From Candidatus Margulisiibacteriota bacterium (GTDB taxonomy: Bacteria > Margulisbacteria > Marinamargulisbacteria > JBFWNS01), in assembly GCA_050250935.1 (NCBI GenBank), contig JBFWNS010000001.1:130102-194101 (forward strand): DNA of 64,000 nt, in the 5' to 3' direction. Position numbers and translations under genes: made by a program. Each line of letters opens with the position of its first letter. The stretch's first letter is position 1. Under the pieces are notes generated by a model. It did not search any database. It had not been told where the DNA came from and saw only the letters and a program-made list of their open reading frames with translations. This document shows, piece after piece, positions 1 through 20,488 of this stretch.

Positions 1-2721
1 TACCCATACCCCTGTTCCAAACTGGAAGGTGCCATAATTTTCAAAGGTCAGAAATGGGGAGATGCTCCCATTGCTTAGATTGGACAACTCTAACAAGCTG
101 TTTGGCGAAACTGTGCCTATCCCCACAAACCCAGCTTTAGGCTGGTTGCCGATATTTCCAGAAGGAAAATAGATGTTAGGGGTTGTAGTCTCCCAATCCC
201 AAGGCTCAACCGAGGGGCTAGTCGACAGTTCTTCTCCAGTCGGCAAAATATAGCTATCGGCCAAAATATCACCACTGACCAACTGCAAGGCCCCAGCATC
301 CGATGTTCCAGGGACTTTACCAAGCCCCACGCTTCCGAAGGAGCTGATGTACATGGCAGGTGTAGCAACCCCATATTGACCATAAACCGTCATGAGTGTG
401 GGATAAAGGTTGGATGTCGAATTATTAAAGACATACATTGAGGCGTTGCTTGCTGTTGCACCCAGGGCTACGGAGCCAGAAACAAACAATCGGGCAGAAC
501 CTGCCGTGTCTGAAGCGATACCCACGTTGCCAGAGGTTGAAATTGAAAAATGAGTTCCCCCATTTCCGACAAAACGAAGGATGGATCCTGTAGGTGTGAT
601 TCCAGCAACCGTTAAGGCCCCTGCAGAAACCGTATTGGTGCCAATCCCCACACCGCCTCGGGACCGAATGATCAACTGATTTTCAACTTTAGAATCTAAG
701 GAAGCAACCGGTTGGCTGTCCCCAAAATAGGCAGCGCCCAAATGGGTCAAAGTTGCGCCTTTTCCCAAGGCCAAACTGAAGTCGTGTTGAACCGTTTTAT
801 CTGAGCCGCCAAACGCCGTCGAATAAGCGCCCCAAACGGCGTTGCTGGTCCCCCCCATGCTTGAAGCAAAGTTACCGGTTACATAGTTATTGAATCCCCC
901 AACCACAGAATATCGAGACAAATGACTATCGTCCCAATCGGCCCCAGAAAACGCAGACGGGGTCACCAAAGTCCCAAAAACCAAGGTTGATTTTGCAGGG
1001 TAGAAGAAGAACCGCGTTCCTGGGCCCGTTACCGGTAAATTGGCAGAAACCCCATAGGTACCGCTAAATAAAACCCCCGCGTTCCCACTGATGGTTAGGT
1101 TTGCAACCGGGTTGTAAACCCCGATCCCAAAACGGTCTTGTTGGGCCACAAATAGCGGCAAGCCCTGCCCAAGTTTATCTCCTTTTTCAACTCGGAAAGA
1201 CCCATTGGACCCCGTTAAAACCCCCATGGTGTATCGCTCGAGAGTGCCCCCGCTGTAATAGCTGAAGCTGATGGCAGGATCTTGGCTGGGCCGATTGGTG
1301 ATTTGAGAAATTTGGAGCAAATTAGCAGGATCTGGACGACCGATACCCACATTTCCCAACATATAGGAGATGCTGTTTCCGGTCGGATTGAGCTGCCAGA
1401 ATGTGGCATTTGAAATAATCAATCGCAAATCTTTACCCCCTAGCGTTATCCCTTTGGCATCCAAAGTTCCGGACACCTGCAAAGTGACGTTTGGGGTGAT
1501 GGTTCCTATCCCCACATTGCCCGTAGAACCCACAAACAAGACTGAATTGGCAGAACTTGAGGCGCTGTTAAACAAGGCGGCATTGGGCCCGCCCGTAATT
1601 TCCACTCTCGAGCTGGGGACGCTGGTTCCGATTCCCATTTTTTGGGTGGTGGGATCAACATAAAACAAATTGGATGTGGTTAACAAAGAGGTGGAAACAA
1701 ATTGGGTCGGAAACGTGGTTTTGGGGAAGACGACGGTCTTAATCCCTGTTAAAGAAACCCAGCCATCGGATGTCGACACATACCCTTGGAAATCGCTTCC
1801 ATTCCACCGAATGGTACCCGCGTTGGTGGAGCTGGTGTCTCCGACACGAAGACCTCCATTGATGTCCAAGGTTTCTAAAGGAGAAAATCGACCAATCCCA
1901 ATCTTTGTGGTGCTGGTCTCTCCCCAATAAATATCTTCGGTGTTACCTGTAATGGTTTTCCAATCAAAGGCCAAATTAATCCCTGTGTTGCTAACCAAAA
2001 GGGCGGTTGCATTCACTGTCCCGACCACATCTAGGGAAAACCTTGGGGTTGCGGTTCCAATCCCAACGTTACCCCGAACATAGGAAATGTTTTGGCTGAC
2101 ATCTTGTTGCCAGGGGAAAAGGTTCTCGAAGGATTGGCCTGCAATATAAAGTCCTTGGACATTGACTTTTCCATTGACATCAAGCAATTGGTTTGGGGTT
2201 GTTTTCCAAAGACCAATGTGCGAATTATCCGGATCAACATATAAAATGTTGCGGCTCACAGTAAATAATTTGCTGACATTAACGGTTGTTGTAAAGTTCC
2301 CATAGACCGTTGCTGCATCGGCACGACCCGCCGTATCGGCCAGGTTGGTTTTGACGGCATAAGGCAAAGACGTAACGGGCATGTAAATGGTTTCGCTTGT
2401 GGGCAACGTGATGCCCAGATAGGGGTTGGTGACATCCAGATCTGTAATGACCAGCGGAGAAACTTCCCCCAACTTAACCCCAAAATTCCCGTTGGTGAAT
2501 TTAACCAATTTACTTTCGGTCCATGCGCCAGAAGGCGCCGAGTAGGTGCTGTTAGCGGTACTGAAGCTATAAAATTTAAAGGCAACCGAAATATTGCCAC
2601 TTAGGGCTTGATTGGCAGCGTTGTAGGCCGTTCCTTGGAAATCCATGGTCAAGGCCAACACCACCAGCGGTGTGGCTAGCCAAGCAAGTCCCAAAACCAT
2701 TCCCCAAACGTACTTCTTCAT
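1..2721 (-). CDS. Large secreted repeat protein, N-terminal portion only (ORF is open to the window start; C-terminus lies outside)
   Basis: Manual translation from ATG at 2721: signal-peptide-like N-terminus (MKKYVWGMVLGLAWLATPLVVLALT), then at least 10 degenerate repeats built around G-x-[VF]-G-I-G-T-x-x-P...L-x-V-x-G. No long complete ORF is listed here in any frame, consistent with one frame open to the edge. Start supported; function unknown. Confidence 0.6.
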   Translation of the reverse strand, partial: MKKYVWGMVLGLAWLATPLVVLALTMDFQGTAYNAANQALSGNISVAFKFYSFSTANSTYSAPSGAWTESKLVKFTNGNFGVKLGEVSPLVITDLDVTNPYLGITLPTSETIYMPVTSLPYAVKTNLADTAGRADAATVYGNFTTTVNVSKLFTVSRNILYVDPDNSHIGLWKTTPNQLLDVNGKVNVQGLYIAGQSFENLFPWQQDVSQNISYVRGNVGIGTATPRFSLDVVGTVNATALLVSNTGINLAFDWKTITGNTEDIYWGETSTTKIGIGRFSPLETLDINGGLRVGDTSSTNAGTIRWNGSDFQGYVSTSDGWVSLTGIKTVVFPKTTFPTQFVSTSLLTTSNLFYVDPTTQKMGIGTSVPSSRVEITGGPNAALFNSASSSANSVLFVGSTGNVGIGTITPNVTLQVSGTLDAKGITLGGKDLRLIISNATFWQLNPTGNSISYMLGNVGIGRPDPANLLQISQITNRPSQDPAISFSYYSGGTLERYTMGVLTGSNGSFRVEKGDKLGQGLPLFVAQQDRFGIGVYNPVANLTISGNAGVLFSGTYGVSANLPVTGPGTRFFFYPAKSTLVFGTLVTPSAFSGADWDDSHLSRYSVVGGFNNYVTGNFASSMGGTSNAVWGAYSTAFGGSDKTVQHDFSLALGKGATLTHLGAAYFGDSQPVASLDSKVENQLIIRSRGGVGIGTNTVSAGALTVAGITPTGSILRFVGNGGTHFSISTSGNVGIASDTAGSARLFVSGSVALGATASNASMYVFNNSTSNLYPTLMTVYGQYGVATPAMYISSFGSVGLGKVPGTSDAGALQLVSGDILADSYILPTGEELSTSPSVEPWDWETTTPNIYFPSGNIGNQPKAGFVGIGTVSPNSLLELSNLSNGSISPFLTFENYGTFQFGTGVWV

Positions 2722-2734
2722 GCCCTACCCTTCA

Positions 2735-3682
2735 TCAGAGGTTCAACGAAACAGAAAAATAGTGATTGTTGTCATATTGGATATGATCGCTTTTTTGCAT
2801 GGCATAATCGAAATTAATGCCATTGACTTCCAATCCAATACCCAAAGCAAGTCCACTTTTAACATCGGTAATCACGTTAAACTCGCGGTATCCCCCCGAA
2901 ACTTGGAAAAAGGGAACAAAGGATGGCCGATAGTTCAAGCTTGCGGCCCGTAGCATTTTGTTGCTACCCACTGTCTTTATTTGACCGTGCAATTGGAAAT
3001 CGCCCATGGTATACCTTACCGCATAAATAGCTTGAAGTGGAAGCGTTTCTGATCCCCCATTGTTGTAGTTGACCTTTAAACCGGCTATCACGTTTTTCAG
3101 GGTAATCGACGTATTAAACGCCCCGGTATCCAACACCATCCCTGCATCCATGTTGAAGCCTGACCCTGTGTATTTTTCGATGCTATTGGAGTAATAAACC
3201 CCCGAAACCCCAAAATGCAAGTTCCGGGTTTGAGAAACGGAATAGGACACTTTGGCCACCAAACTGGAGTACCCGAAGGTTTCGCCGGTTTCGGAAATAT
3301 ACCAATCGCCACTGAGGTCCCCAATGACATTGCTCTCTACACCAATGGCCTGGGTCTTTTTGAGATCGCCAACATCGACACTCATCAACCCAAGACCAAT
3401 CACCCCATAGGGCATTCTCATGCTGACGGCCACGTTTTTGAAGTTGGCTTCGTCCATTAATTTAGAGGTAAACGCAGACACCGAAAACCGACGGATGCGG
3501 TACAAAGCCGCTGGATTTTCAAACACACTATTGGCATAGGGGCTAAACCCTTCCACCTGACCCAACCGAATGGCCCGTGCCGAAGACCCGATATCGGTGA
3601 TATCCAAATAGTTTCCACCGGCCACCGCAGGGGTCGCCAGCAAAAACAATCCGAGGATCATGGCCAGGCTTTTTTGAATCAT
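2735..3682 (-). CDS. Outer-membrane beta-barrel-like protein, possibly PorP/SprF-like (T9SS-associated)
   Basis: 315-aa ORF with signal peptide (MIQKSLAMILGLFLLATPAVA), alternating hydrophobic pattern, C-terminal ...FSVSLNL, and an N-terminal FSPY...FENPA motif reminiscent of the PorP/SprF NPA motif. Family assignment is tentative. Confidence 0.5.
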   Translation of the reverse strand: MIQKSLAMILGLFLLATPAVAGGNYLDITDIGSSARAIRLGQVEGFSPYANSVFENPAALYRIRRFSVSAFTSKLMDEANFKNVAVSMRMPYGVIGLGLMSVDVGDLKKTQAIGVESNVIGDLSGDWYISETGETFGYSSLVAKVSYSVSQTRNLHFGVSGVYYSNSIEKYTGSGFNMDAGMVLDTGAFNTSITLKNVIAGLKVNYNNGGSETLPLQAIYAVRYTMGDFQLHGQIKTVGSNKMLRAASLNYRPSFVPFFQVSGGYREFNVITDVKSGLALGIGLEVNGINFDYAMQKSDHIQYDNNHYFSVSLNL

Positions 3683-4287
3683 GGGATAACCGCCATTTTA
3701 CCTTTGGACAGGACTTTTCCGCCGCTTACAAGCACATAAAAATAGACTCCCGCAGAAAGTTGATAGCCCCCAAAACTGTCCAAATCGAGGCGAACCTTGT
3801 TGTAGCCGTATTTGGCACCTTCAGACCCTGCTGCAAAAGACCCATTAAAAATTCGATTGGAGAAAATGTCGTAGATTTGCAATTGAATATCCACGTTTTT
3901 GGACAACTGATACCCAATGATGCCGCCCTTGGCTTGTTGGAAGGGGTTGGGATAAACCAGTGCAGGTCCAATAACGGCCGCTTCGACATTCGAAAAATCT
4001 TGGACACCCACGCTTGTCGAACCTGTGGGAATGGTGGACTGCAAATTGGCAAACCCCATTTTAAGGACAGACAGTTGGTTCGCATTGACCGAACGGTTGA
4101 TGTTGGTTTCTTTTGAGAGTTCTGGATTGAGGGCTTTTACAAAAGCAGTGAAGTAGTTGGCAAAATAGAAGACTTGATTGAAGGAGACTGAAGAAGTTGT
4201 ATCGTCGATTGTATCGGCCTTCGCGGGAACACCCGTTAAGGAGAGGAAAAAGGCCAGTAGCAAAATGGTAAAACGTGTCTTAAACAT
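3679..4287 (-). CDS. Secreted protein with T9SS-type C-terminal sorting domain
   Basis: 202-aa ORF with signal peptide; last ~85 aa (ALVYPNPFQQ...LQIYDIFSNRIF...GVYFYVLVSGGKVLSKGKMAVIP) match the characteristic pattern of the Por-secretion CTD. Stop overlaps the start of the downstream barrel gene by 4 nt. Confidence 0.6.
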   Translation of the reverse strand: MFKTRFTILLLAFFLSLTGVPAKADTIDDTTSSVSFNQVFYFANYFTAFVKALNPELSKETNINRSVNANQLSVLKMGFANLQSTIPTGSTSVGVQDFSNVEAAVIGPALVYPNPFQQAKGGIIGYQLSKNVDIQLQIYDIFSNRIFNGSFAAGSEGAKYGYNKVRLDLDSFGGYQLSAGVYFYVLVSGGKVLSKGKMAVIP

Positions 4288-4395
4288 GGGTCTGTTCCAA
4301 TAGTGGTTTCGATCTGTTTTGTATACTTATCGTGTGAAGGGGTTGAAAACTTGTATAAATCATTTGATGGGTGTTGAGAACATGGGTTGGTCGGA

Positions 4396-5691
4396 TTAGC
4401 GGGTCAGGACACGGGCTTCGGTATCGTAGCCCTTGCTTCCGGTAATGGTTGCGGTATAGAACTGCCCGGGTTTTAGGGATTCGGGGTTGGCAATTAACAC
4501 CACCCCATCCACATCTGGGGCTTCTCGGAACGATCTGGCGATGCCATCGCCTTCGTAAAGCACTTGGATGGTTTCATTTTTTCGGCTGGCCAACTGCGCT
4601 TGGACACTCTTTTTTTGTGCAGACATCACGCGGTTGAGTCGTTTTTGTGCGATTTCGCGGGGCACTTTGTCGCCCAAGCGCGCCGAACGGGTTTCCCGTT
4701 CTTCGGAGTAAAGGAAGGCCCCCAATTGGGTGAAGGGATACTGTTCGATAAAGGCGATAAGCTCGTCGACGTGCGCTTCGGTTTCGCCAGGGAAACCGAT
4801 GATGAGGGTGGTTCGAAAAACCAATTCGGGAATTTCTTGCTTAAAGAGGGTATAGATGCGACGCAGATCGTCTTGGGTAGAGCCACGCCCCATGGCTTTG
4901 AGCAACTCGGAATTGACATGCTGAATGGGCATGTCCAAATAGCGGCAAATGGTCGGATTGTCTTTGATGACCTTAACCAAGGCCTCATCAACCCGAGGCG
5001 GGAAAATGTACATGGCCCGAATCCATTCGACACCCTCGACTTTGGCCAGGGCCTCGAGCAAGATTGGCAAGGAGGGTTTTCCATAGAGATCTTCACCCCA
5101 ACAGGTGGTATCTTCGGCAATTAAAATGAGTTCTTTGGCCCCAAACGAGACTTGCAATTTGGCCTCGGTGATTACCTCTTCGAGGGGTTTCGAGGTGTGT
5201 TTACCTCGAATTTTGGGAATGGTGCAAAACGAACACCAGTTGTCGCACCCTTCGGAAATTTTAATGTAAGCAAAATGAGACGGAGTCAGTTTAAGGTATT
5301 GCTTGGGCACCACCGGTGTAAACCGACGTTTAAACACCATAGCCGCCAATTTTTCTTGGATGGTGCCTTCTTCGTGGGTGGTTAACCACAGATCCACCAA
5401 GGGGTATTTGGCGGTTAATTCTTCTTTTTTGAAGCGGCTGGGGTAACAACCACTGACCACCACATATTTAAGGTCTCCGGCTTCTTTTTTGGCGATTAAG
5501 GCCTCGATATTGGCCTCGGTTTCGTCGATCGCAGATTGGATAAACGAACAGGTATTCAAAATGGTGATTTGTTCGCCGCTGCCTTCTGGGGTGATGGCAA
5601 AGCCCCCCCGGCGAAGTTGGTCTATCATTTTTTCGGAATCAACTAGCGTACGGGCACAACCCAAAGAAACCAAACTGAACTGATGCGACAT
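4396..5691 (-). CDS. rimO: Ribosomal protein S12 methylthiotransferase RimO (radical-SAM MTTase)
   Basis: 431 aa; MTTase N-domain, radical-SAM CxxxCxxC (CDNWCSFC), C-terminal TRAM-like region. Confidence 0.85.
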   Translation of the reverse strand: MSHQFSLVSLGCARTLVDSEKMIDQLRRGGFAITPEGSGEQITILNTCSFIQSAIDETEANIEALIAKKEAGDLKYVVVSGCYPSRFKKEELTAKYPLVDLWLTTHEEGTIQEKLAAMVFKRRFTPVVPKQYLKLTPSHFAYIKISEGCDNWCSFCTIPKIRGKHTSKPLEEVITEAKLQVSFGAKELILIAEDTTCWGEDLYGKPSLPILLEALAKVEGVEWIRAMYIFPPRVDEALVKVIKDNPTICRYLDMPIQHVNSELLKAMGRGSTQDDLRRIYTLFKQEIPELVFRTTLIIGFPGETEAHVDELIAFIEQYPFTQLGAFLYSEERETRSARLGDKVPREIAQKRLNRVMSAQKKSVQAQLASRKNETIQVLYEGDGIARSFREAPDVDGVVLIANPESLKPGQFYTATITGSKGYDTEARVLTR

Positions 5692-5807
5692 GCGATAAGA
5701 ATCTCCTAAAAATCAGCAATTCGGGGTATTATAGTCGTTCTTGGCGTTACCGACCAGAACACATCGCGACCCCAATATCACCCCAATTGTTACGAATAGG
5801 ACCCCCA

Positions 5808-7934
5808 ATGACTGCTACCCTTAACACCCAACAACAAGAAGCCATTGCCCACAGCGCGGGTCCCCTGCTGATTATTGCAGGCGCAGGCTCTGGCAAAACC
5901 ATGGTACTCACCCATAAAATTCGACATCTGATTCAAACCCAGGGGCTTTCCCCCAATGCCATTTTGGCCATCACCTTTACCAACAAAGCCGCCAAAGAAA
6001 TGAAAGAGCGAGTTCGAACCTTGTTGGGCGAAACCCAGCCCCAACCGTGGATTGCGACCTTTCATGCGTTTTGTGCCGAGGTATTGCGCAAGGAATTTCA
6101 TCATTTGGGGCGATCCCAGTCGTTTGTAATTTTGGACAGTGGGGACCAGCAACGTATTCTCAAAGACATTATTAAAAGCAACAATTTGGACGAAGACCTG
6201 TATTCGGCCGCTGTGGTTTCCGCCCGTATTAGTGGGCTTAAAAACAAGTTGGTGAGCCCCGAGGACTATCGCAACCCCAGTCGCCGGGACTACGATGGCA
6301 AATTGGCCGATGTGTATCAGGCCTATCAGTATCGGTTGCGGCAAAACAACGCCATGGATTTCGACGACCTGATTTTCGGAGTCACCACCCTTTTTGTTAC
6401 CCACCCTGCGGTGTTGGAACATTATCAAAACCGGTTTCGTTCCATTTTGGTGGACGAGTACCAAGACACCAATCATGCCCAATACATTTTGGTTCAATTG
6501 TTGGCCAAGCGTCACCAAAATCTTTGTGTGGTTGGGGATTTTGACCAAAACATTTATTCCTGGCGGGGGGCCAATATTCAAAACATTTTGAATTTTGAAC
6601 AAGACTATCCCACAGCTACCGTGATTCGACTGGAACAAAATTACCGCTCGACCCAAACCATTTTGGACGCCGCAAACGCCGTGATCGAAAACAATACCCA
6701 ACGGCAACCTAAAGTGCTGTGGACCGACAATAATCCCGGAACCCCCATTGTGGTTTATGGGGCCAAAAGCGATTTTGATGAAGCCGAATGGATTACCCAC
6801 ACCATCGAAGACCAATTGAAAACCCACGATGCCAACGATGTGGTGATTTTGTTTCGCACCAACGCCCAAAGCCGGGCTCTGGAAGAACAATTACAACGCA
6901 AAAGCATGGCCTATCGCCTGATTGGTGGGCTTAAATTTTTTGCCCGAGCTGAAATCAAAGATTTTATCGCCTATCTGCGGCTGATTGTGAATCCCCAAGA
7001 CCGCATTGCCTTTGCCCGAGTGGCCAACCGTCCCACCCGAGGTATGGGCGAGGTGACGGTACAAACCCTGTTGATGGCGTCTCAGGACCAGGGATTAACC
7101 TTTCAAGAACTGCTGGCCCAAGGCAACTTACCCCTACGAAACAAGGCCAATATCCAGACCTTTTTGGACTGGGTCGAAACCCAACATCAGCACTTAAAAG
7201 CTGGGGCTTTTGCCAATTTGGGGGATTTGCTCAAACAGATTCTAGACGACACCCAATATGCCACTTGGCTGGGCCAAGATCCCGCCACCAAAGACGAAAA
7301 ATTGGACAACCTCTACGAACTGATCGCCATGGGACACGCCGAAACCGATGCTGAAGCGTTTTTAAATCGCTTGGCTTTGGCCACAGATGGCGACCAAACC
7401 GAGTCGACCCACAGTGCCGTCACGTTAATGACCATTCACCATGCCAAAGGGTTGGAATTTCCCATCGTCTTTGTGTGCGGACTGGAAGAAAAAACCTTCC
7501 CCCATATTCGGTCTTTGCACAACGATTCCGAACTCGAAGAAGAACGCCGTCTCTGTTATGTGGCCCTGACCCGTGCCAAAGAAAAGCTGTTTTTAACCTA
7601 TTCAGGACGACGCCAGGTTTTTGGCGAAGTCAGTTTGCATGAACCCTCTCGGTTTTTGGCCGAAATTCCATCTAGATTGCTCCAAACGGCTGCTCCGAGA
7701 GTGGACCTGTCTGCCGCCAAAGTAAGCTTTTCCTTGGGGAAATTTACCCCTGTTACCCAGCCTGTACAGTCTTTTGATCGGGGTGAAACGGTTTATCACC
7801 GCGACTGGGGCCAGGGCCAGGTGATTCGTACCGAAGGGGAAGGCGAAAAAATGGTGATCCATGTGAATTTTTCGGGGTCGCTTAAAAGCTTAATTGCCAA
7901 ATATGCCCCGTTGACCAAAACCCCAGGAGGTTAG
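5808..7934 (+). CDS. pcrA: ATP-dependent DNA helicase PcrA/UvrD family
   Basis: Walker A AGAGSGKT, UvrD-family helicase motifs along the ORF; start placed at MTATLNTQQQEAI (ATG 5808) by alignment with typical PcrA N-termini. Confidence 0.85.
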   Translation: MTATLNTQQQEAIAHSAGPLLIIAGAGSGKTMVLTHKIRHLIQTQGLSPNAILAITFTNKAAKEMKERVRTLLGETQPQPWIATFHAFCAEVLRKEFHHLGRSQSFVILDSGDQQRILKDIIKSNNLDEDLYSAAVVSARISGLKNKLVSPEDYRNPSRRDYDGKLADVYQAYQYRLRQNNAMDFDDLIFGVTTLFVTHPAVLEHYQNRFRSILVDEYQDTNHAQYILVQLLAKRHQNLCVVGDFDQNIYSWRGANIQNILNFEQDYPTATVIRLEQNYRSTQTILDAANAVIENNTQRQPKVLWTDNNPGTPIVVYGAKSDFDEAEWITHTIEDQLKTHDANDVVILFRTNAQSRALEEQLQRKSMAYRLIGGLKFFARAEIKDFIAYLRLIVNPQDRIAFARVANRPTRGMGEVTVQTLLMASQDQGLTFQELLAQGNLPLRNKANIQTFLDWVETQHQHLKAGAFANLGDLLKQILDDTQYATWLGQDPATKDEKLDNLYELIAMGHAETDAEAFLNRLALATDGDQTESTHSAVTLMTIHHAKGLEFPIVFVCGLEEKTFPHIRSLHNDSELEEERRLCYVALTRAKEKLFLTYSGRRQVFGEVSLHEPSRFLAEIPSRLLQTAAPRVDLSAAKVSFSLGKFTPVTQPVQSFDRGETVYHRDWGQGQVIRTEGEGEKMVIHVNFSGSLKSLIAKYAPLTKTPGG

Positions 7935-8981: not shown

Positions 8982-11096
8982 TTACCGCAATTGAGCCCTA
9001 ATTCCCTCGAACAAAATCTTCACCACCTCTGGCAGCTGTCCATAGCGGTCTTCGACTTCCCAAATTAAATCGTCCAGTTCGTCTTGTCGGGTTACGCCCA
9101 TCAAGCGCTGATAAATGGCCAACCGTTCGGATTCTGTATCGATGTAGTCGTCGGGGATATAGGTCTGAAGCACGTCTTCCAAATGAAGGGTTGGTTTTTG
9201 AGGCGGTCGTTGGCCTCGCGCTCGATAAACGGCATCTTCCAAAAGCTTACAATACAACTCGAAGCCCACAGCTGTGACATGGCCCGATTGCCGGTGCCCG
9301 AGCATGGTTCCGGCCCCCCTCAATTCGAGGTCTTTGAGGGCCAATTTGTATCCCGATCCCAAGGCCATATAGTCGCGAATGGCTTGGAGGCGCTTGATCC
9401 CTGCCCCGCTGAGGGTTTCTTCGCTGGTGTAAAACAAATGGGCATAGCCTTGTTTTTCGGTTCGTCCCACCCGACCCCGCAATTGGTGGATCTGAGACAA
9501 CCCAAAGTTTTCGGCTTTTTCGATGATGATGGTATTGGCGTTGGGAATGTCCAACCCGTTTTCGATGATGGTACTGCAAAGCAAGACCTGAATCTCGCCT
9601 GCCAGAAACCTTGCCATGGTTTTTTGAAGGGCCCCTTCTGGCATTTGGGCATGGGCCACCTCCAGGGTGACATTCCCCAAAATTTTTTGAAGCGCCGCCG
9701 CCCGTTGGGCGCTGTAGCGAACGTTGTTATAGATGTAAAACACCTGCCCACCCCGAGACAATTCGGTGGCTACAGCCTGATGAACAGCCTCGTCGCTGTA
9801 GGCTTGAACCGCCGTTAAAACCGGTTTTCGCTTCAAGGGCGGGGTACTGATGAGGGACAAATCTCGAGAGCCTGTCAACGACAAATAGAGGGTTCGGGGA
9901 ATGGGGGTTGCACTGACCGACAAAACATCCACCGTGGGATGGGCTTTTTTGAGGGCTTCTTTGTGGGTCACCCCAAAGCGTTGTTCTTCGTCCAAAATTA
10001 AGAGGCCTAAATTTGGAATACTCACATCTTTTTGAAGCAAACGGTGGGTGCCAATGACCACATCCACGCTGTTGCGTTTTAAGCCATCCAAAATGGCTTG
10101 CTGGTCTTTTTTAGACCGAAACCGAGACAACCCCTCAACCCGGATGGGAAAGGGCTCGAATCGCTTTTTAAACAGGGTCAAATGCTGTTCGGCCAACAGG
10201 GTGGTTGGGGCCACGATGGCCACTTGCTTGCCGTTGTCTGCCGCTTTAAAGGCAGCCCGGAGCATAACTTCGGTTTTGCCATAGCCCACTTCACCACAGA
10301 GCAACCGGTCCATGGGACGCTGGGATTCCATATCGGCTTTAATGGCGGCAATGGCCGACAGTTGATCCTGGGTTTCTTTATAGGGAAAGGTGGCCTCTTG
10401 CTCGAGTTGCCAGACGCTGTCTTCTTTGCAGGCAAACCCCACCACCAATTGACGTTGTTTGTACAGCTCGTAAATGTCCGAGGCCAATTCCAAAACGGCT
10501 TTTTGGGCCTTCTTTTTGGTGGTTTTCCAGCTGCCGTCATACAGGCCATTAATCACGGGCTCGGTTTCGGAGTCGCCATAGGGATGCACCCAATTCAACT
10601 GGTCCAAAGGCACAAACAACCGGTCTTCGCCCTTGTATTGAATCCACAAAAAGTCGCCTTCTTTTCCAGCAAAAGCCCGGCGAACCAGTCCTTTATAGCG
10701 CCCCACCCCATAGTGTTCGTGAACCAAAATATCGTCGATTTTGTAGGTCGACAGAACCGAATCGTCCAACACCGCCTCGCCCATGGGTTGGAAATAGGGG
10801 GATTTTTGAACCGTATTCGTGGCCGCAATGGTGGTTTTTTTGAGTTCGGACAAAGACCGTTGTGTTTGAACCAAAAACGAATTGAGCCGCTCGATGGACT
10901 CCCCAAAATAGTCGATGCGAATGGGATTGGTTTGATTCACCGCAAACACGTCGATGATGGAACCACGCACCGAAAACTCACCCGCTTCCAAAACCATGGG
11001 AACCCGGACATAGCCCAGATCCACCAAATTTTTGATTAGGTTTTCGTGACTGGGGTATCGCTTTTTGGTCAGGTCTAGGGTAAGGGTCATTGCCAA
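8982..11096 (-). CDS. mfd: Transcription-repair coupling factor Mfd, short form lacking the N-terminal UvrB-homology region
   Basis: 704 aa; CarD/TRCF RNAP-interaction motif (ILVHEHYGVGRYKGL...FVPLDQL), superfamily-2 helicase with DEEQRFGV, TRCF C-terminal region. Upstream sequence is occupied by the comF-like gene, so no N-terminal extension is possible. Confidence 0.8.
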   Translation of the reverse strand: MAMTLTLDLTKKRYPSHENLIKNLVDLGYVRVPMVLEAGEFSVRGSIIDVFAVNQTNPIRIDYFGESIERLNSFLVQTQRSLSELKKTTIAATNTVQKSPYFQPMGEAVLDDSVLSTYKIDDILVHEHYGVGRYKGLVRRAFAGKEGDFLWIQYKGEDRLFVPLDQLNWVHPYGDSETEPVINGLYDGSWKTTKKKAQKAVLELASDIYELYKQRQLVVGFACKEDSVWQLEQEATFPYKETQDQLSAIAAIKADMESQRPMDRLLCGEVGYGKTEVMLRAAFKAADNGKQVAIVAPTTLLAEQHLTLFKKRFEPFPIRVEGLSRFRSKKDQQAILDGLKRNSVDVVIGTHRLLQKDVSIPNLGLLILDEEQRFGVTHKEALKKAHPTVDVLSVSATPIPRTLYLSLTGSRDLSLISTPPLKRKPVLTAVQAYSDEAVHQAVATELSRGGQVFYIYNNVRYSAQRAAALQKILGNVTLEVAHAQMPEGALQKTMARFLAGEIQVLLCSTIIENGLDIPNANTIIIEKAENFGLSQIHQLRGRVGRTEKQGYAHLFYTSEETLSGAGIKRLQAIRDYMALGSGYKLALKDLELRGAGTMLGHRQSGHVTAVGFELYCKLLEDAVYRARGQRPPQKPTLHLEDVLQTYIPDDYIDTESERLAIYQRLMGVTRQDELDDLIWEVEDRYGQLPEVVKILFEGIRAQLR

Positions 11097-11746
11097 TCCG
11101 GGACATAGGCCAGGGTAAAGCCCACCATGTCGAGGTTTCTGTGGTGTTTGAGGGTTTTGGCCAGTTCGGTCAGGGTGGCCCCCGAGGTTAAAATGTCGTC
11201 TACCACGGCCACGCGCTGGTAAGGGGGAAAGCTGTCTTCCACCCTAAAACAATTCCTCAAAATGGTTTTGCGTTGTTCGGCAGTTTGGGCATGAAGGGGC
11301 GGCGTGTCGACGGTTCGATTCACCGGGGTTGTGTAGTGGGCTTGATGGGTTTCAAAATAGGGCGAAAAGACCAAATCGAGGTGATTATAGCCCCGTTTTC
11401 GAAGCCGATCGGGGTGACTGGGAACAGGAATCCAGGCGTCGATGCCATGGAAGGGCAACACCCCCATGTGTTTTTGAAGGGCGGCCACCAACAGGGGGGC
11501 AGCCTCAGGACACTGTTCAAATTTCAAGGCCCGTATCAGCGATTTAACCGGCCCCTCGTAGGGAAAAAGTCCAATTACAGAGACCATCCCTTCTATGTGG
11601 GTATTAAAATGAGGCTTCGGAACCACCTGTTTTCGACAGGGCTCGCACAAGATTCCCTCTCCCAAACTACCACAATGGCAGCAGACCCTGGGAAAAATAA
11701 GATCGAATAGTTTGACCAACCAGGACTTCATCATGCCCCAAATCAT
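11087..11746 (-). CDS. comF: ComF family protein (zinc-ribbon plus phosphoribosyltransferase domain)
   Basis: 219 aa; N-terminal CxxC...CxxC pairs, C-terminal PRTase motif VAVVDDILTSGATL; stop overlaps mfd start. Confidence 0.7.
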   Translation of the reverse strand: MIWGMMKSWLVKLFDLIFPRVCCHCGSLGEGILCEPCRKQVVPKPHFNTHIEGMVSVIGLFPYEGPVKSLIRALKFEQCPEAAPLLVAALQKHMGVLPFHGIDAWIPVPSHPDRLRKRGYNHLDLVFSPYFETHQAHYTTPVNRTVDTPPLHAQTAEQRKTILRNCFRVEDSFPPYQRVAVVDDILTSGATLTELAKTLKHHRNLDMVGFTLAYVPDWQ

Positions 11747-11800
11747 AGTCTGGATTGGCCTCTTGCCACAACGTTTGGGTGTGACCTACCATGAACCTCC

Positions 11801-12472
11801 ATGAAAACCTATCGCATTGCTCCCTCCATTTTGTCTGCCGATTTTGCCCGTTTGGGCGATGAAGTCAACGCCGTTTTGGCAGCCGGTGCCGATTGGGTTC
11901 ATTTTGATGTCATGGACAACCACTATGTCCCCAACCTGACCATTGGGCCTTTGGTGTGCGAAGCGTTGCGCAACCACGGCATTACAGCCCCCATCGATGT
12001 GCATTTGATGGTCAAACCTGTGGATCGCATTATTGGGGATTTTGTTAAAGCCGGTGCCTCGGCCATTACCTTTCATCCCGAAGCGTCTGAACACATCGAC
12101 CGATCTTTGTCGTTGATTAAAGACGCGGGTCTGATGGCCGGCTTGGTGTTTAACCCTGCAACGCCATTGGATTATTTGGACTATGTGATGGACAAAATTG
12201 ATATCGTACTGATTATGTCCGTTAATCCCGGTTTTGGGGGGCAATCTTTTATCGATGCTGTTATTCCCAAAATCAGAAAAGCCAAAGAAAAAATTCAGGC
12301 CAGTGGCCGCAATATTATTTTGGAAATTGATGGGGGCGTAAACCCTGGCAACATTCGCCGCATTGCCGAAGCGGGAATCGACACATTTGTGATTGGTTCT
12401 GCCCTTTTTAAAACCCCCAACTATGTGGACACCCTTGCCCAGTTTAGAAACGAGCTGGCACAAGCACGTTAG
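11801..12472 (+). CDS. rpe: Ribulose-phosphate 3-epimerase
   Basis: 223 aa; [36 protein letters not shown] motifs. Confidence 0.9.
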
Positions 12473-13121
12473 CATCCAAAAAATCCGGGGACGCAAGTCG
12501 CTGAGCCTTCGTGTGGAAGGCCCCGATCGGATTGTGGTGCGGTCGCCTTGGTTGGTGTCGCCGAAAACCATTTGGCAGTTTATCTATGAAAAATCCGACT
12601 GGATTCAAGACCGCTTGGACGATCACGCCGCCAGGCACCGTCCCCTGACAACCGGCCGGGAATTGCTGTATTTGGGCCAACCCAAAACCCTTCAGATTGT
12701 CCCTTCACCTAAAAAAAGACCGGTTGTAACCTTGGCACAAGACACCTTAAGGGTTGCAACCCAACACCCAGAAACTGTTAAAGCCGCTTTGGAAAAATGG
12801 TATCGGGCCAACGCTGCCGACATCATTTCGGACCGGGTCTCGATTTTTCAGCCCCAGGTCGGGAAACCGGTCAATGCCATTCGGTTTAAAACCCTCAAAA
12901 GCCGCTGGGGCAGTTGTTCGTCCAAAAATAATTTAAACTTTAACTGGACCCTGATGATGGCCCCTCTGGATGTGATCGATTATGTCGTGGTTCATGAACT
13001 CTGCCATTTGCTGGTCCCCAACCATTCGGCTGCCTTTTGGGAAACCGTCGCCAAGATCTTGCCCGACTACAAACAGCGGTGGGCCTGGCTTAAAAACAAC
13101 GGGGAAAAACTCCGCCTTTAG
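12393..13121 (+). CDS. YgjP-like metal-dependent hydrolase (DUF45 / WLM-type HExxH)
   Basis: [12 protein letters not shown] zinc-binding motif near the C-terminus; listed ATG overlaps rpe by 80 nt, so the true start may be a downstream alternative start codon. Start uncertain. Confidence 0.65.
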
Positions 13122-13124
13122 CCG

Positions 13125-13367
13125 CTAGGAGGCTTTGGACCTGCGGGGTTTTTGGAAATGGCTCAGGGTAAACAAAGCATGCTTTTTAGCCTCGGACAGC
13201 TTTCGAATCAACGGCACGGTGTCGATGGCCATATCGTAGTGGTGTTTGCGCAAGTCGGTATTGTGCAGGGCCTCGGTTTCCAGTTCGTAAATCAGGGATT
13301 GCAATTGATTGGCAACCTGGGCGATACGCTCCAAATGGTCTTTGCCCAACTGTTCTTCGGCGCTCAT
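13125..13367 (-). CDS. Hypothetical small protein
   Basis: 80-aa ORF whose start overlaps the stop of the upstream EVE-domain gene by 4 nt, suggesting translational coupling; no motif recognised. Confidence 0.35.
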   Translation of the reverse strand: MSAEEQLGKDHLERIAQVANQLQSLIYELETEALHNTDLRKHHYDMAIDTVPLIRKLSEAKKHALFTLSHFQKPRRSKAS

Positions 13368-13840
13368 GGTTTGGGTTTGCCCAGGGTTTCGATGAACTTA
13401 AATTCGGCTTCTGTGACGGGCTGAACCGACAGGCGAGACCCTTTTTGAAGCACCACCATGTTGGCCAATTCGGGGTATTGTCTTAAATCCGACAAGGACA
13501 CAAACTTGGAAAACGTGCTGACATAACCCACATCCACCATTTCCCAAATGGGTTTTTCGGGGGTGGATTTGGGATCAAAATGATCGTGATTGGGGTCTTC
13601 CCAAGCGGTAAAATCGGGGTGGGCTGCTTTCACCACTTTACAAATGCCAGCAATCCCCGAAGGCTCGGCGTTGGAGTGATAAAAAAAAGCCAAATCCCCA
13701 ACCGACATGGCATCGCGCATAAAATTTCGGGCTTGATAGTTTCGAATGCCATCCCAAAAGGTGGCTTTGTCTCGCTTGAGATCGGCAATGGAATAACAAC
13801 CGGGCTCTGTTTTTAATAGCCAGTACTTCATATTCGTCAT
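13364..13840 (-). CDS. EVE (PUA-like) domain protein
   Basis: MKYWLLKTEP...FFYHS pattern typical of EVE-domain proteins; start at 13840 or 13831. Confidence 0.7.
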   Translation of the reverse strand: MTNMKYWLLKTEPGCYSIADLKRDKATFWDGIRNYQARNFMRDAMSVGDLAFFYHSNAEPSGIAGICKVVKAAHPDFTAWEDPNHDHFDPKSTPEKPIWEMVDVGYVSTFSKFVSLSDLRQYPELANMVVLQKGSRLSVQPVTEAEFKFIETLGKPKP

Positions 13841-13861
13841 GATAAATTTTATACTGTCGGG

Positions 13862-14197
13862 ATGCAAGGCCACACCCATCACCAGTCCGAAGGCGCCCTC
13901 CAGGAGCTTGTCGCCGTTAAACCCCCACATTTTTATACCGTGGTGCTGTTAAACGACGATTTTACGCCCATGGAATTTGTCACTTGGATTTTGGAGACCG
14001 TGTTTTATAAAACCCCAGAAGAAAGTGTGAAGTTGATGCTCGATGTCCACCACCGAGGGCGTGGCGTTTGTGGGGTGTTCACCTATGACATTGCCCGCAG
14101 CAAAGCCAGCCAAGTCGAAGAGCTGGCCAGGCAACACCAACACCCGCTACACTGTGTGATTGAACCCGTTTCCCCCGAAGATAGCACCGCACCATGA
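13862..14197 (+). CDS. clpS: ATP-dependent Clp protease adaptor ClpS
   Basis: KPPHFYTVVLLNDDFTPMEFV...GVCGVFTYDIA matches the ClpS core. Confidence 0.85.
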   Translation: MQGHTHHQSEGALQELVAVKPPHFYTVVLLNDDFTPMEFVTWILETVFYKTPEESVKLMLDVHHRGRGVCGVFTYDIARSKASQVEELARQHQHPLHCVIEPVSPEDSTAP

Positions 14198-14204
14198 TAC
14201 TGCC

Positions 14205-16403
14205 ATGATACTAATTGAAGAACTCGAAAAAACCCTTACAGCCGCCTACGACGAAGCCAAAACCCGTCATCACGAATTTGTGACGCTTGAACACCTGCTG
14301 TTGGCTTTAACCTTCGATCGGATTTCGGCCACACTTTTGGAAGTGTGTGGGGCCAATTTAACCACCCTTCGCCAAGACCTTCGTAGCTTTTTGGATGAAA
14401 AAATCACCGCCCTGCCCCCCCATATTCAAAAAGACCCCGAATATTCGGTGGGCTTTCAGTTTGTGTTGCAACTGGCCATTGGGCATAGCGAATCGGCCGG
14501 TAAAAATCACATTGATGCCAGCAACCTGTTGGCGGCGTTGTTTCGCGAAGAGCAATCGGCTGCGGTGTATTTTTTGAGCCAACAAGGGATCTCGCGCTTG
14601 GATGTGCTTCGGGTGATGGCCCATGGCAGTGCCAAACCCGAGGTTGAACGCACCGAAACATCCGAAGAATCGGGTGGCGCAAAGGCCCTGGAAGGCTGTT
14701 GCCTGAACCTGAACGAGATGGCCAAAACCCAGGGCTTTGACCAGCTGATTGGCCGAGACATCGAGCTGGATCACATCATCCACTGTTTGGGCCGGCGCCG
14801 AAAAAACAATCCCATTTTGGTTGGGGATGCTGGGGTGGGGAAAACCGCCTTGGCCCAAGGTCTGGCCGCTAAAATCGTGGCCGGCGATGTTCCCGACTTT
14901 TTGAAAAATGCGGTTTTGTATAGCCTCGATATGGGGGCTTTATTGGCCGGAACCCGGTACCGGGGGGATTTTGAAGAACGCCTCAAAAAAGTCCTGACCC
15001 AACTCGAAAAAGAGCCGTTTAGCATTTTGTTTATCGACGAAATTCATACCCTGATCGGTGCTGGAACCTTGGGCAACGGCAATTTGGATGCGGCCAATTT
15101 ACTCAAACCGGTGTTGTCCAGCGGAGCTCTGCGCTGCATGGGGACCACCACCCACGAAGACTATCGCCGCATTTTCGACAAAGACCAAGCCTTGTCCCGC
15201 CGCTTTCAAAAGATCTCGGTTTCTGAACCTTCCGAAACCGAAACCACGGCCATTTTGCAAGGTCTTAAACCGAAATTCGAATTGTTTCATACCGTTCGCT
15301 ACGACGACGCTGTGATGTCCCATTTGGTACAAAGCGCAGGCCGCCTTTTCCACGATCGCCGATTCCCCGACAAAGCCATTGATTTGATGGACGAGGTTGG
15401 GGTGACCCTGAAGCTTCAAAATCGTACCGACAAACACATTACGGTTGCCGATGTGGATGCGGTGCTTAAAACCCGATACCCCCATCTTTTAACCACAGCA
15501 GAACCCGACAAAAAAGACCTTAAATCCAGTTTATCTGCTGTGTTGTTTGGCCAAGACTCGGCCATAGAAACGGTTGCCGATGCTGTGCAGATTGCCCAAG
15601 CGGGTTTGCACGATCCCCAGCGGCCCCTGGGCTGTTTTTTGTTTGCAGGCCCAACAGGGGTCGGTAAAACCGAATTGGCCAAACAAACCGCCGAACACCT
15701 GGGCATGACCTTTTTACGCTTCGACATGAGCGAATATATGGAAAAACACGCCGTTGCCCGACTGATTGGGGCGCCCCCAGGCTATGTTGGCTACGAACAA
15801 GGGGGCTTGCTGACCGAAGCCGTTCAAAAATCCCCCAAATCGGTGGTTTTGCTCGACGAAATTGAAAAAGCCCACGACGATATTGCCAATATCTTGCTCC
15901 AAGTGATGGACCACGGCACCCTGACCGACACCAATGGCCGCGCCGTCAGCTTCAAAAACACCCTCCTAATTTTAACCACGAACGCCGGGGCCAAAGAAAG
16001 CCAACAAAAACCGATTGGATTCGACAAGCCCGATTTCGAGGACCGCAGCAAAGAAGCCATTGAAAAACGGTTTTCCCCGGAGCTGCGGAACCGTCTGACC
16101 GCCATTGTGACTTTTGCCCCGCTTCAAAAGGCCGTCATGACCCAAATTTTGGACAAGGAATTGCAAGTGATTGTCGCCCGCTTGGCCGAAAAAAAGGTTA
16201 TCTTTTCTCTCGATGATGCCGCCAAAACGATTTTGTTGGACAAGGGCTTTGACCCCGCCATGGGCGCAAGACCGCTTAAACGCTGCCTGGAACGGGAAAT
16301 TTTGGTTCCCCTCTCCAAAGCCGTGCTGTTTGGCCAGCTCCAAAATGGTGGAAACGCCACCTTAATCGCCCAAGAAGGCCAGCTTCGGATGAGCTACACA
16401 TGA
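14205..16403 (+). CDS. clpA: ATP-dependent Clp protease ATP-binding subunit ClpA
   Basis: Two AAA+ modules (GDAGVGKT and GPTGVGKT Walker A), N-domain; start set at ATG 14205 just after clpS stop. Confidence 0.9.
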   Translation: MILIEELEKTLTAAYDEAKTRHHEFVTLEHLLLALTFDRISATLLEVCGANLTTLRQDLRSFLDEKITALPPHIQKDPEYSVGFQFVLQLAIGHSESAGKNHIDASNLLAALFREEQSAAVYFLSQQGISRLDVLRVMAHGSAKPEVERTETSEESGGAKALEGCCLNLNEMAKTQGFDQLIGRDIELDHIIHCLGRRRKNNPILVGDAGVGKTALAQGLAAKIVAGDVPDFLKNAVLYSLDMGALLAGTRYRGDFEERLKKVLTQLEKEPFSILFIDEIHTLIGAGTLGNGNLDAANLLKPVLSSGALRCMGTTTHEDYRRIFDKDQALSRRFQKISVSEPSETETTAILQGLKPKFELFHTVRYDDAVMSHLVQSAGRLFHDRRFPDKAIDLMDEVGVTLKLQNRTDKHITVADVDAVLKTRYPHLLTTAEPDKKDLKSSLSAVLFGQDSAIETVADAVQIAQAGLHDPQRPLGCFLFAGPTGVGKTELAKQTAEHLGMTFLRFDMSEYMEKHAVARLIGAPPGYVGYEQGGLLTEAVQKSPKSVVLLDEIEKAHDDIANILLQVMDHGTLTDTNGRAVSFKNTLLILTTNAGAKESQQKPIGFDKPDFEDRSKEAIEKRFSPELRNRLTAIVTFAPLQKAVMTQILDKELQVIVARLAEKKVIFSLDDAAKTILLDKGFDPAMGARPLKRCLEREILVPLSKAVLFGQLQNGGNATLIAQEGQLRMSYT

Positions 16404-17446
16404 AGTGGCTAGGGCTGTTGGTTCTTCTTGTTTTGGTCTTTATGCTTCTGATCCTGTACCTGGGCTACCATTTTTCTGCACCGGGTTATCAGGGTGCGGT
16501 AAGCTATCACTTCAACGGCAAAACCTTTGAAAATGCAACCCCCGTTCGTACCCGATTTCTGGATGTTTTGAAATGGAAATGGACCTCTTCCCCACAGGCT
16601 TGGCCCCAACATGTGCCATTGACCTTTAAGCCCGACATTCAATACCCCATTCCCAGCAAAGCCTTTCGTCTGACCTTCATCAACCACGATACGTTTTTAA
16701 TCGAAGCCGATCACCTTCGGATTTTAACCGACCCCATTTGGTCCAAGCGGGCCAGCCCATTTTCGATGCTAGGGCCCAAACGGGTACATGATCCCGGTCT
16801 TCCCTTTTCAGAACTCCCCCCCATCGACGTTGTTTTGATCAGCCACAACCATTACGATCATATGGACATCCAAACCCTTAAGGCCCTTCAAAAACGCTGT
16901 CGGCCCTTGTTTATTACCGGTCTTGGCAATAAGGCATTTTTGATACAGCAAGGCCTGCAAAACGTGGTTGAATTGGATTGGTGGGATTCGATTCAAGTGA
17001 AGGGCTGGACCCTGACCTTTACCCCCGCCAAACATTTTTCGAGCCGGGGTTTATTTGATCGGAATCAAACGCTTTGGGGTGGATTTGTCGCAAAATCGGC
17101 CACGGGGGCAACCCTCTATTTTGCAGGAGACACGGGATTCGATCCTTTTTTTAAGGCCATTGCAACACAATTGGGCCCCATTGATGTAGCCTTATTGCCC
17201 ATCGGTGCCTACGAACCCACTTGGTTTATGAAGCCCGTACATTGCAACCCAGCAGAGGCCGTCCAAGCCCATCAATTGTTGGGTGCCAAACAAAGTTTTG
17301 GGATGCATTGGGGCTGCTTTCAGCTCACCGACGAGGCCAGAGAACAACCTTTGGCCGAACTGGCATCTGCCCTGAATCAGGCGCACATTCCCACAGCCGC
17401 CTTTAAAGTGCTTCAACCGGGGCAAACCACGCTGGTTCCGTTTTAA
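16400..17446 (+). CDS. Membrane-anchored MBL-fold metallo-hydrolase
   Basis: N-terminal TM segment; HxHxDH-type motif ISHNHYDHMD; overall resemblance to NAPE-PLD-like Zn hydrolases. Confidence 0.7.
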   Translation: MKWLGLLVLLVLVFMLLILYLGYHFSAPGYQGAVSYHFNGKTFENATPVRTRFLDVLKWKWTSSPQAWPQHVPLTFKPDIQYPIPSKAFRLTFINHDTFLIEADHLRILTDPIWSKRASPFSMLGPKRVHDPGLPFSELPPIDVVLISHNHYDHMDIQTLKALQKRCRPLFITGLGNKAFLIQQGLQNVVELDWWDSIQVKGWTLTFTPAKHFSSRGLFDRNQTLWGGFVAKSATGATLYFAGDTGFDPFFKAIATQLGPIDVALLPIGAYEPTWFMKPVHCNPAEAVQAHQLLGAKQSFGMHWGCFQLTDEAREQPLAELASALNQAHIPTAAFKVLQPGQTTLVPF

Positions 17447-17976
17447 ACCCTTAAAGCCAAGGTCTTGTGTTTGCCTGCAATGGCCACATATTTTTGCGCC
17501 CATTTTTGGTTTACTGTAAATGCTTCGGGCCCCAGATTTCGGATTACTTTTCCGGGAACACCCACCACCAATGACCCCGATTCGATGGTTTGATTTTCCG
17601 TGACAATGGCCCCAGCCCCAATGACACATCCTTTTTTAAGAACAGCGCCGTTCAAAATGATGGCCCCCATGCCAATTAAGCAGCCATCTTCGATGGTGCA
17701 GCCATGCAAAACCGCCCGGTGCCCCACCGTCACATCTTCGCCAACGATACACGCGTTGTCATTTTCAACATGAATCACACAGCCATCTTGGATGTTGCTG
17801 CGTTTGCCAATGTGAATGCGGTTGATGTCCCCTCGCAGAACCGCCGAATAAAACACCGAGGCATCTTCTTCTAAAATCACATCCCCCACAACCGTGGCTG
17901 TATTGGCCACAAAAACGCTGGGATGAATGCTAGGCGCTTGGTCTAGAACCGAATCTGGCAAATCGTATTTGTGCAT
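17443..17976 (-). CDS. Gamma-class carbonic anhydrase family protein (left-handed beta-helix)
   Basis: 177 aa with hexapeptide repeats and conserved His residues in the gamma-CA/YrdA pattern. Confidence 0.8.
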   Translation of the reverse strand: MHKYDLPDSVLDQAPSIHPSVFVANTATVVGDVILEEDASVFYSAVLRGDINRIHIGKRSNIQDGCVIHVENDNACIVGEDVTVGHRAVLHGCTIEDGCLIGMGAIILNGAVLKKGCVIGAGAIVTENQTIESGSLVVGVPGKVIRNLGPEAFTVNQKWAQKYVAIAGKHKTLALRV

Positions 17977-17979
17977 GGG

Positions 17980-18153: not shown

Positions 18154-18157
18154 ATCG

Positions 18158-20471: not shown

Positions 20472-20488
20472 GACGACTCCTTACGTAT

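Follow-up and report, generated by a model that had tools for sequence, protein, structure and literature searches.

In the MAT (mosaic adhesive trimer) fibres of the predator Bdellovibrio bacteriovorus, the signal peptide is followed by an invariant, β-rich N-terminal domain of ~130 amino acids (aa), which has no homologues in the Protein Data Bank (PDB) and is presumed to bind an element of the cell surface, and the edges of the intertwined trimeric β-helices carry capping loops with the consensus V-G-G/N-pi-X-X-P-X-X-X-L, a feature common to MAT fibres, S74 tailspikes and MyRF (PMC10769870). Phage proteins are the second group of relevance here. In phi29 and K1F a C-terminal domain is needed for trimer folding and is afterwards cleaved off (PMC3357383), and for T5 pb1 folding has been proposed to begin at a short C-terminal triple coiled coil (PMC4690869). 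Here we describe a gene at the edge of a 64,000-nucleotide stretch from the genome of a Candidatus Margulisiibacteriota bacterium (assembly GCA_050250935.1, contig JBFWNS010000001.1, positions 130,102 to 194,101 of the forward strand; the whole stretch is called the window hereafter). Its product, a giant protein of 2,965 aa, is in our judgement likely to be the Sec-exported precursor of a homotrimeric, MAT-like surface fibre of a diderm bacterium, and probably an adhesin.

The part of the gene contained in the window is the following.

1..2721, minus strand: first 907 of the 2,965 codons of the giant, likely fibre-forming gene (open frame, exact NCBI match, collinear orthologues)

The 907 codons are free of stops, the ATG is at 2721-2719 and stops are found just upstream; by our own arithmetic, the chance of a stop-free run of this length is ~(61/64)^907, roughly 1e-19. 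Exact look-up of the neighbouring gene (2735-3682) led to the source contig, Logan SRR27751816_11157 (68,948 bp; locus L001), which agrees with the window at 13,682/13,682 bases. There the full gene occupies 10962-19859 and reaches its stop after 2,965 codons, so that the window shows less than one third of it; the 2,058 residues beyond the window edge are encoded by L001 13683-19859. The protein is identical to NCBI entry MGE4169209.1, “hypothetical protein AB7F28_00630”, from a 576-kb contig of a Candidatus Margulisiibacteriota metagenome-assembled genome, to which nine more proteins encoded in the window also have matches. Its homologues are collinear with it at 28-37% identity over up to ~2,000 aa, and for this reason the long frame is taken as the true one; collinear orthologues of the gene are present at loci L002 and L005-L007. 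An earlier note on the window, the sequence-only reading, had described a giant secreted protein truncated by the window edge, had dismissed the six short open reading frames (ORFs) listed inside it as artefacts of other frames, had proposed recovering the full gene from the upstream contig, and had named an in-frame stop within 1-2721 or a different true frame as grounds for rejection. This description holds: the protein starts with a putative signal peptide (see below), the gene is now complete on L001, no in-frame stop is present, and only the long frame has homologues. Gly, Thr, Ser, Val and Asn are abundant in the protein. Cysteine is missing altogether from the 2,965 residues (L001 10962-19856); the orthologues contain 0-2.

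The link to the MAT fibres lies in a motif of ~25 aa with the consensus h-h-x-x-G-N-V-G-I-G-T-x-x-P-x-x-x-L-x-V-x-G. An iterated profile search found ~21 credible copies in the giant protein, 11 of which are encoded in the window, within 79..2217.

2164-2217, minus strand: motif copy
2014-2088, minus strand: motif copy
1849-1917, minus strand: motif copy
1588-1635, minus strand: motif copy
1462-1536, minus strand: motif copy
1300-1371, minus strand: motif copy
1081-1131, minus strand: motif copy
601-672, minus strand: motif copy
472-543, minus strand: motif copy
280-351, minus strand: motif copy
79-135, minus strand: motif copy

The core of the motif is far more frequent than the composition predicts: G.VGIG occurs 9 times in the full protein (0.019 +/- 0.14 expected from 2,000 shuffles) and [VI]G[IVL]G 16 times (1.4 in shuffles). 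A profile built exclusively from the protein's own 21 motif copies (A6) was searched against 177,635 PDB sequences and gave six matches, five of which are crystal structures of B. bacteriovorus MAT fibres: Bd2133 (8OND, expectation value E=3.8e-11), Bd3182 (8OJN, E=2.5e-6), Bd1334 (8OML, E=3e-5; 8ON4, E=0.025) and Bd2439 (8OL4, E=0.02). The matched segments, such as NVGIGATAPTAKLE and LVGINTAAPLQKLH of Bd2133, are the capping loops tabulated in Supplementary Fig. 18 of PMC10769870. The sixth match, a glutaminase, is probably spurious. At the level of sequence, the motif is thus identified with the MAT capping loop. The capping loop belongs to trimeric β-helix modules, and a homotrimeric mosaic fibre is therefore a more likely product of the gene than a single-chain β-solenoid.

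The motif had been noticed in the sequence-only reading, and the four copies it quoted are real (GNVGIGTATP at aa 217, GNVGIGTITP at aa 401, GGVGIGTNT at aa 689 and GFVGIGTVSP at aa 864). The spacing of 50-60 aa that it gave describes the window part roughly (33-153 aa, median ~57) and fails for the whole protein, where neighbouring copies are 28-402 aa apart. Its picture of a protein built of degenerate repeat units did not survive: self-BLAST of the giant protein detects no internal repeat longer than the ~25-aa motif, and this, together with the irregular spacing, indicates a recurring structural motif rather than a tandem-repeat protein. Regarding the β-solenoid or fibre-like surface structure that it suggested, the fibre-like part is borne out by the capping loops and the single-chain solenoid is not. 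The search for similarity to tail fibres or adhesins that it recommended has yielded, in addition to the MAT capping loops, a match of the PHROGs “tail fiber protein” family phrog_9942 to aa 2018-2249 (E=1.1e-7). With the whole protein as query, the sole phmmer match in the PDB is echovirus VP1, which is spurious.

A monomeric adhesin, made of a single-chain β-solenoid or of Ig-like repeats, in which the motif would be merely a turn signature, has to be considered at this point. It would agree with the richness in Gly, Thr, Ser, Asn and Val, with the β-hairpins in the AlphaFold2 (AF2) monomer model of P0078, a relative with 37% identity, and with the fact that much of the fibre body has no assignable family. 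We nevertheless hold it to be improbable, since a periodic unit is lacking (no self-BLAST repeat, copies 28-402 aa apart), in five crystal structures the motif falls specifically on loops of trimeric, intertwined β-helices, and the trimerising type of chaperone and the coiled coil at the C-terminus, described next, would have no role in a monomer.

The C-terminal end is of a different kind. Seven relatives of the last ~320 aa are found in databases, and for two of these the precomputed annotation includes Peptidase_G2. On the isolated C-terminal 319 aa the Peptidase_G2 model (PF11962) scores 29.4 bits (cut-off 25), in a match that spans model positions 20-94 of 228 only, and 7/8 members of the C-terminal family are matched by the model. 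A profile of this family (A1) matches 28NB, the released chaperone domain D4 of the tailspike Dpo31, at E=1.2e-4, and 3GQH, the C-terminal fragment of phi29 gp12, at E=0.022. In these alignments the segment D2776-Y-A-E-Y-L is placed on residues 1-6, DFAEYF, of 3GQH_A and on DYAEYF of 28NB_A, and its D, A, E and L show no variation within the C-terminal family; among 146 sampled relatives of the N-terminal domain (see below), the DYAEY signature is found in none. The AF2 model of P0078 shows a confident β domain (predicted local distance difference test, pLDDT, 75-92) followed by a helix of ~50 residues, and the two PDB entries that match it best are 3GQH (E=1.8e-4, template modelling (TM) score 0.57) and 3SUC, the pre-mature gp12. 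The C-terminus is homologous to the G2-type chaperones, directly by sequence and, for the fold, by way of the relative P0078. Searched for Peptidase_S74 (PF13884), the giant protein gave no match. MAT proteins are recognised by an S74 chaperone or an independently folding adhesive tip; the end found here is a G2-type chaperone with a coiled coil.

By analogy with the release of the phi29 and K1F chaperones, self-cleavage is predicted at A2775|D2776, which would free a fragment of 190 aa and leave a mature chain of ~2,750 aa. The length of the fibre can be estimated from the Bd2133 tip, in which 370 residues are 150 Angstrom long (PMC10769870); scaled by this rise per residue, it would measure, very roughly, 0.1 micrometre. 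In a separate locus (L004 2212-7273), P0082, a relative of 520 aa with a G2-type end, forms a row with a Peptidase_S74 protein of 643 aa and an ORF of 490 aa, so that fibre genes with two different chaperone types are adjacent there.

The N-terminal end of the protein contains two features.

2647..2721, minus strand: putative signal peptide, aa 1 to ~25, MKKYVWGMVLGLAWLATPLVVLALT (read from the sequence by inspection)
2326..2649, minus strand: N-terminal all-β domain, aa 25-132 (profile A2 match, AF2 model)

As judged by inspection of the translation, MKKYVWGMVLGLAWLATPLVVLALT has a basic n-region and a hydrophobic core of ~20 residues and looks like a Sec signal peptide; it has no Cys and is thus not a lipoprotein signal. 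Equivalent leaders precede the matching N-terminal domain in the homologues, several of which align at their N-termini to aa 25-132 of the giant protein. The AF2 model of this domain has a pLDDT of 84 and seven strands of at least 3 residues. With the domain alone as query, a word-indexed homology search returned nothing and an exhaustive profile search was needed, which revealed a family of 71,219 clusters (50% identity) at E<=1e-3 and 38,415 at E<=1e-10. Across the family the match is nearly always at residues ~25-135, right after the signal peptide, and the consensus of ~108 aa (alignments A2/A3) reads ..INYQG.LTD..G.P..G....TF.IY....GG..LW.E...V.V..G.F.V.LG......F....YLG..V....EM.PR..LTSVPYA. 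No Pfam or NCBIfam model covers the domain, canonical members included, and fold searches of the PDB and of viral structures gave only generic β-sandwich matches, with no close PDB homologue. Members that have a name are annotated as “hypothetical proteins” and come from Zixibacteria and Cloacimonadota. Canonical members pair the domain with YadA_head repeats, Peptidase_S74, or TIG/Ig domains. When 146 proteins were fished by the N-terminal domain alone, 72 had capping loops (0 in shuffles) and some ended in Peptidase_S74, which is the architecture of an S74 MAT. The domain at aa 25-132 is presumed to be the cell-proximal anchor, and membership in the MAT family is probable, the two N-terminal domains being likened by description only. 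Among distant members of the family, three paralogues are found in a row around a Peptidase_C10 gene (L009 4006-10464, L010 1413-8228), adjoining a ParE/RelB toxin-antitoxin pair, and at L008 a Peptidase_C11 gene comes after a member of the family.

The YadA_head repeats of these relatives raise the question of a trimeric autotransporter adhesin (type Vc). PF05658 YadA_head is present in several homologues, and aa ~590-680 of the giant protein are Gly/Asn-rich and resemble head repeats by eye, a likeness that no model match confirms. By contrast, Pfam finds neither a YadA-type C-terminal β-barrel anchor nor a YadA_head match in the giant protein, and the C-terminus is a soluble β chaperone domain followed by a helix or coiled coil. 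An autotransporter is thus extremely unlikely.

Two further genes precede the giant gene in the same orientation and form a module with it.

3679..4287, minus strand: T9SS-CTD protein of 202 aa, first gene of the module (TIGR04183)
2735..3682, minus strand: candidate outer-membrane barrel of the PorV/PorQ family, 315 aa (NF033709 PorV_fam)

The 202-aa protein consists of a leader, a variable stretch of ~75 aa and a type-A C-terminal sorting domain (CTD) for a type IX secretion system (T9SS). TIGR04183 scores 25.5 bits (cut-off 23) and Pfam Por_Secre_tail (PF18962) 17 bits, under its cut-off of 27; the NCBI name is “T9SS type A sorting domain-containing protein”. The 315-aa protein matches NF033709 at E=5.4e-17 and 62.4 bits, under the 90-bit cut-off, all 5 orthologues match as well, and its profile has no match among PDB sequences; judged by its sequence, it should be regarded as distantly related to the PorV/PorQ family. 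The two genes overlap by 4 nucleotides, and the PorV-like gene ends 13 nucleotides before the ATG of the giant gene. A promoter and terminator scan of 2600-5900 found no promoter-like sites, and terminator-like sites inside genes only.

The order CTD protein, PorV-like protein, giant gene is kept in 5/5 loci (the window, L002 and L005-L007) despite different flanks, with the PorV-like protein, 42-46% identical in L002 and L005-L007, always directly upstream of the giant gene. The closest homologue of the fibre, P0001 (37% identity, GCA_009924325.1), is preceded by both partners, and its other neighbours differ. When genomes were scanned for the PorV-like protein, the module was recovered in three more genomes of uncultured bacteria, where a CTD protein of ~205-257 aa and a PorV-like protein of ~310 aa precede giant frames of at least 2,693, 2,688 and 3,328 aa, open at the end of the locus, which are collinear with the giant protein at 28-35% identity. 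Compared with related genomes, identity falls from 58-77% in the housekeeping block to 42-46% in the PorV-like protein and 33-37% in the fibre; of these members the fibre thus evolves fastest, in keeping with what one expects of an exposed protein. The five-gene housekeeping block, which includes a transketolase and an M50 peptidase, is found directly beside the module in L005-L007 (1200-7400). The same block is at 19023-25122 in the window, ~15 kb from the module, so that either the module or the block has moved.

The neighbours suggest another possibility, namely that the giant protein is cargo of a T9SS, shuttled through it and attached by the PorV-like protein. The two adjacent, co-oriented T9SS-like genes (PorV/PorQ family, type-A CTD) and the preservation of the link in five genomes speak for it. 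Against it, NCBIfam and Pfam detect no type-A (TIGR04183) or type-B (TIGR04131) CTD in the full protein or in its last 319 aa, the PorV-like protein scores under the family cut-off, no further T9SS gene was noticed across the 64-kb window, and the host is a member of the Margulisiibacteriota, outside the T9SS range; the system is regarded as confined to Bacteroidota and relatives (PMC5445135, PMC8564354). A literature search on Margulisbacteria with T9SS, and on the motif string, found nothing relevant. We consider such cargo status unlikely.

The surroundings of the module are those of a cellular chromosome. The fibre gene has RimO, PcrA, PdxJ, Mfd, Rpe and Rrf2 as neighbours and no phage genes, and the housekeeping genes of the window also include Clp ATPase, transketolase, IlvD, ribonucleotide reductase, ArgRS and SerRS. 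Three further genes bear on the cell envelope.

61793-63484, minus strand: SLH-domain protein
25138-26346, plus strand: LpxB
29428-31299, plus strand: TonB-dependent receptor (Plug domain)

Together these three indicate that the host is a diderm. Its outer membrane may be held in place by SLH domains, as occurs in other Terrabacteria-type diderms. The Margulisiibacteriota are a barely studied sister phylum of the Cyanobacteria.

This setting bears on whether a tail fibre or tailspike of a phage or prophage, belonging to a virion or tailocin, is encoded by this chromosomal gene. Such an origin would account for the match to phrog_9942, for a C-terminal chaperone of the phi29 gp12 type, and for the capping-loop motif, which is present in S74 tailspikes too. 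It is nonetheless very improbable: the protein begins with a signal peptide, a feature absent from virion proteins, its neighbours are housekeeping genes and not phage genes, the module with two outer-membrane-type proteins is kept in five genomes, and both a tblastn search of 50,697 phage records and a scan of IMG/VR contigs with the C-terminal profile were empty.

Elsewhere in the window, ORFs of 967 aa (32855-35758, minus strand) and 677 aa (39058-41091, minus strand) have no Pfam family at E<=1e-5, and neither contains the capping-loop motif or the N-terminal domain. The most extreme AT skew of the window (-0.23) is at 36001-38000 and coincides with a gene for a DUF2157 membrane protein (35877-37142, plus strand) and an unannotated ORF of 194 aa (37139-37723, plus strand), which is followed by a PIN-PhoH gene (37720-39063, plus strand).

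Returning to the MAT-like fibre, the favoured reading of the giant gene, its assembly can be pictured as follows. The signal peptide, as read from the sequence, would direct the chain through the inner membrane. The C-terminal module (aa ~2776-2965), composed of a Peptidase_G2 chaperone body of the phi29 gp12 type and a terminal coiled coil of ~50 aa, would then set three chains in register and nucleate folding from the C-terminus to the N-terminus, as suggested by phi29 gp12, K1F and T5 pb1. The fibre body would fold as a chain of intertwined triple β-helix modules, whose edges would be closed by the ~21 G-N-V-G-I-G-T-x-x-P-x-x-x-L capping loops. The chaperone may subsequently cut itself off at the predicted site, A2775|D2776, and the region just before aa 2775 would become the functional tip of the chain of ~2,750 aa. 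The N-terminal β-sandwich (aa 25-132) would be cell-proximal and hold the fibre on the surface, where the PorV-like barrel and the CTD-only protein are the best candidates for an outer-membrane dock or passage. We infer trimer formation, export, the direction of folding and an adhesive role from these comparisons. Some Margulisbacteria live attached to other cells (a literature search found no paper in support of this), and cell-cell adhesion is a plausible role of the fibre.

Several observations weigh against this proposal. Regarding the chaperone, the Peptidase_G2 model scores 22.5 bits on the full-length protein, under its cut-off, and the structural support is indirect, coming through P0078 with its 37% identity. 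Between the motifs, the fibre body has no Pfam match above threshold, searched whole or in 500-aa slices, so that parts of it may not be β-helix, and the AF2 monomer model of P0078 is unconfident in the fibre part (pLDDT <50). The N-terminal profile finds no match in the orthologues at L002 and L005-L007, which points to divergence of this domain in the lineage, and its likeness to the MAT domain is one of position and description. Finally, the PorV-like and CTD partners were not found beside more distant family members, the link being specific to the giant gene of this lineage, and their possible part in docking the fibre is suggested by the conserved gene order.

A further step would be to regard the conserved trio as a self-contained device for the export and/or anchoring of a giant, phage-like trimeric fibre, in a phylum without a canonical T9SS. 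The PorV-like barrel would receive the CTD-only protein as a plug, in the way that PorV receives PorA, and the N-terminal domain of the fibre would dock on the pair. This is a tentative idea, which we consider unlikely to be correct. If true, it would name the “surface element” of MAT fibres that was left unidentified in PMC10769870, and it would mean that parts of the T9SS are reused outside Bacteroidota.

The analysis turns a “hypothetical protein” of 2,965 aa into a testable object, a putative adhesion fibre of ~0.1 micrometre with a predicted self-cleavage site. The MAT-type plan, so far described in Bdellovibrio, would be used well outside predators, and its cap could come from the other class, G2, of intramolecular chaperones known from phages. 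The analysis has also brought to light a family of N-terminal domains, over 71,000 sequence clusters in size, for which Pfam has no model, and the conserved association with a CTD-only protein and a PorV-like barrel provides a concrete candidate for holding or passing such fibres at the outer membrane. As far as the evidence goes at present, each building block is of a known kind, and the interest lies in their combination and context.

Among the known systems, the T9SS of Porphyromonas gingivalis offers a parallel for the two partner genes. There, PorA in its full length remains attached to PorV at the cell surface (PMC12152298), and likewise a PorV-family protein is paired with a very small protein that is mainly a type-A CTD. 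The barrel described here is, however, distant (62 bits against the 90-bit cut-off), its host does not belong to the Bacteroidota, further T9SS genes were not seen, and here a fibre gene is linked to the pair.

The S74 chaperones (PF13884), found in K1F endosialidase, T5 pb1 and MyRF, have the same proposed job as the C-terminal module, namely C-terminal trimerisation followed by self-release. They share the upstream capping-loop motif, and many homologues of the giant protein end in S74, whereas the giant protein itself, without a PF13884 match, uses the unrelated G2 fold. This fold it has in common with the phi29 gp12 pre-neck appendage (Peptidase_G2; 3GQH, 3SUC) and with domain D4 of Dpo31 (28NB): in all of them a β-stranded C-terminal domain starts with D-[FY]-A-E-Y, contains an F/L-G-Q-V/I..V motif further on and ends a trimeric β-helical protein, such a trimer being the predicted state of the giant protein. 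The sequence similarity is marginal (E=1e-4 to 0.02), an extra coiled coil of ~50 aa follows the domain here, and the passenger would be a secreted cellular fibre of 2,750 aa instead of a virion spike of ~690 aa.

The closest parallel remains the MAT fibres of Bdellovibrio (Bd2133, 8OND; Bd3182, 8OJN; Bd1334, 8OML; Caulton et al. 2024, PMC10769870), from which the giant protein differs in its size (2,965 aa, against 626-1,959 aa in the 21 Bdellovibrio MATs) and in its end, a G2 chaperone with a coiled coil where MAT tips are S74, β-rich, TNF-like, lectin or SPRY modules (PMC10769870). It also differs in its operon with a PorV-like barrel and a CTD-only protein, and in its host. To our knowledge, the Margulisiibacteriota are not known to be predatory. 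In both cases the gene is a chromosomal gene of a diderm bacterium and not of a phage, and the leader is directly followed by a domain, all-β here, as in all 21 MATs. The order of parts is shared as well: a signal peptide, a β-rich N-terminal domain of little more than 100 aa, a long fibre with NVGIGTxxPxxxL capping loops along its length, and then a variable C-terminal module.

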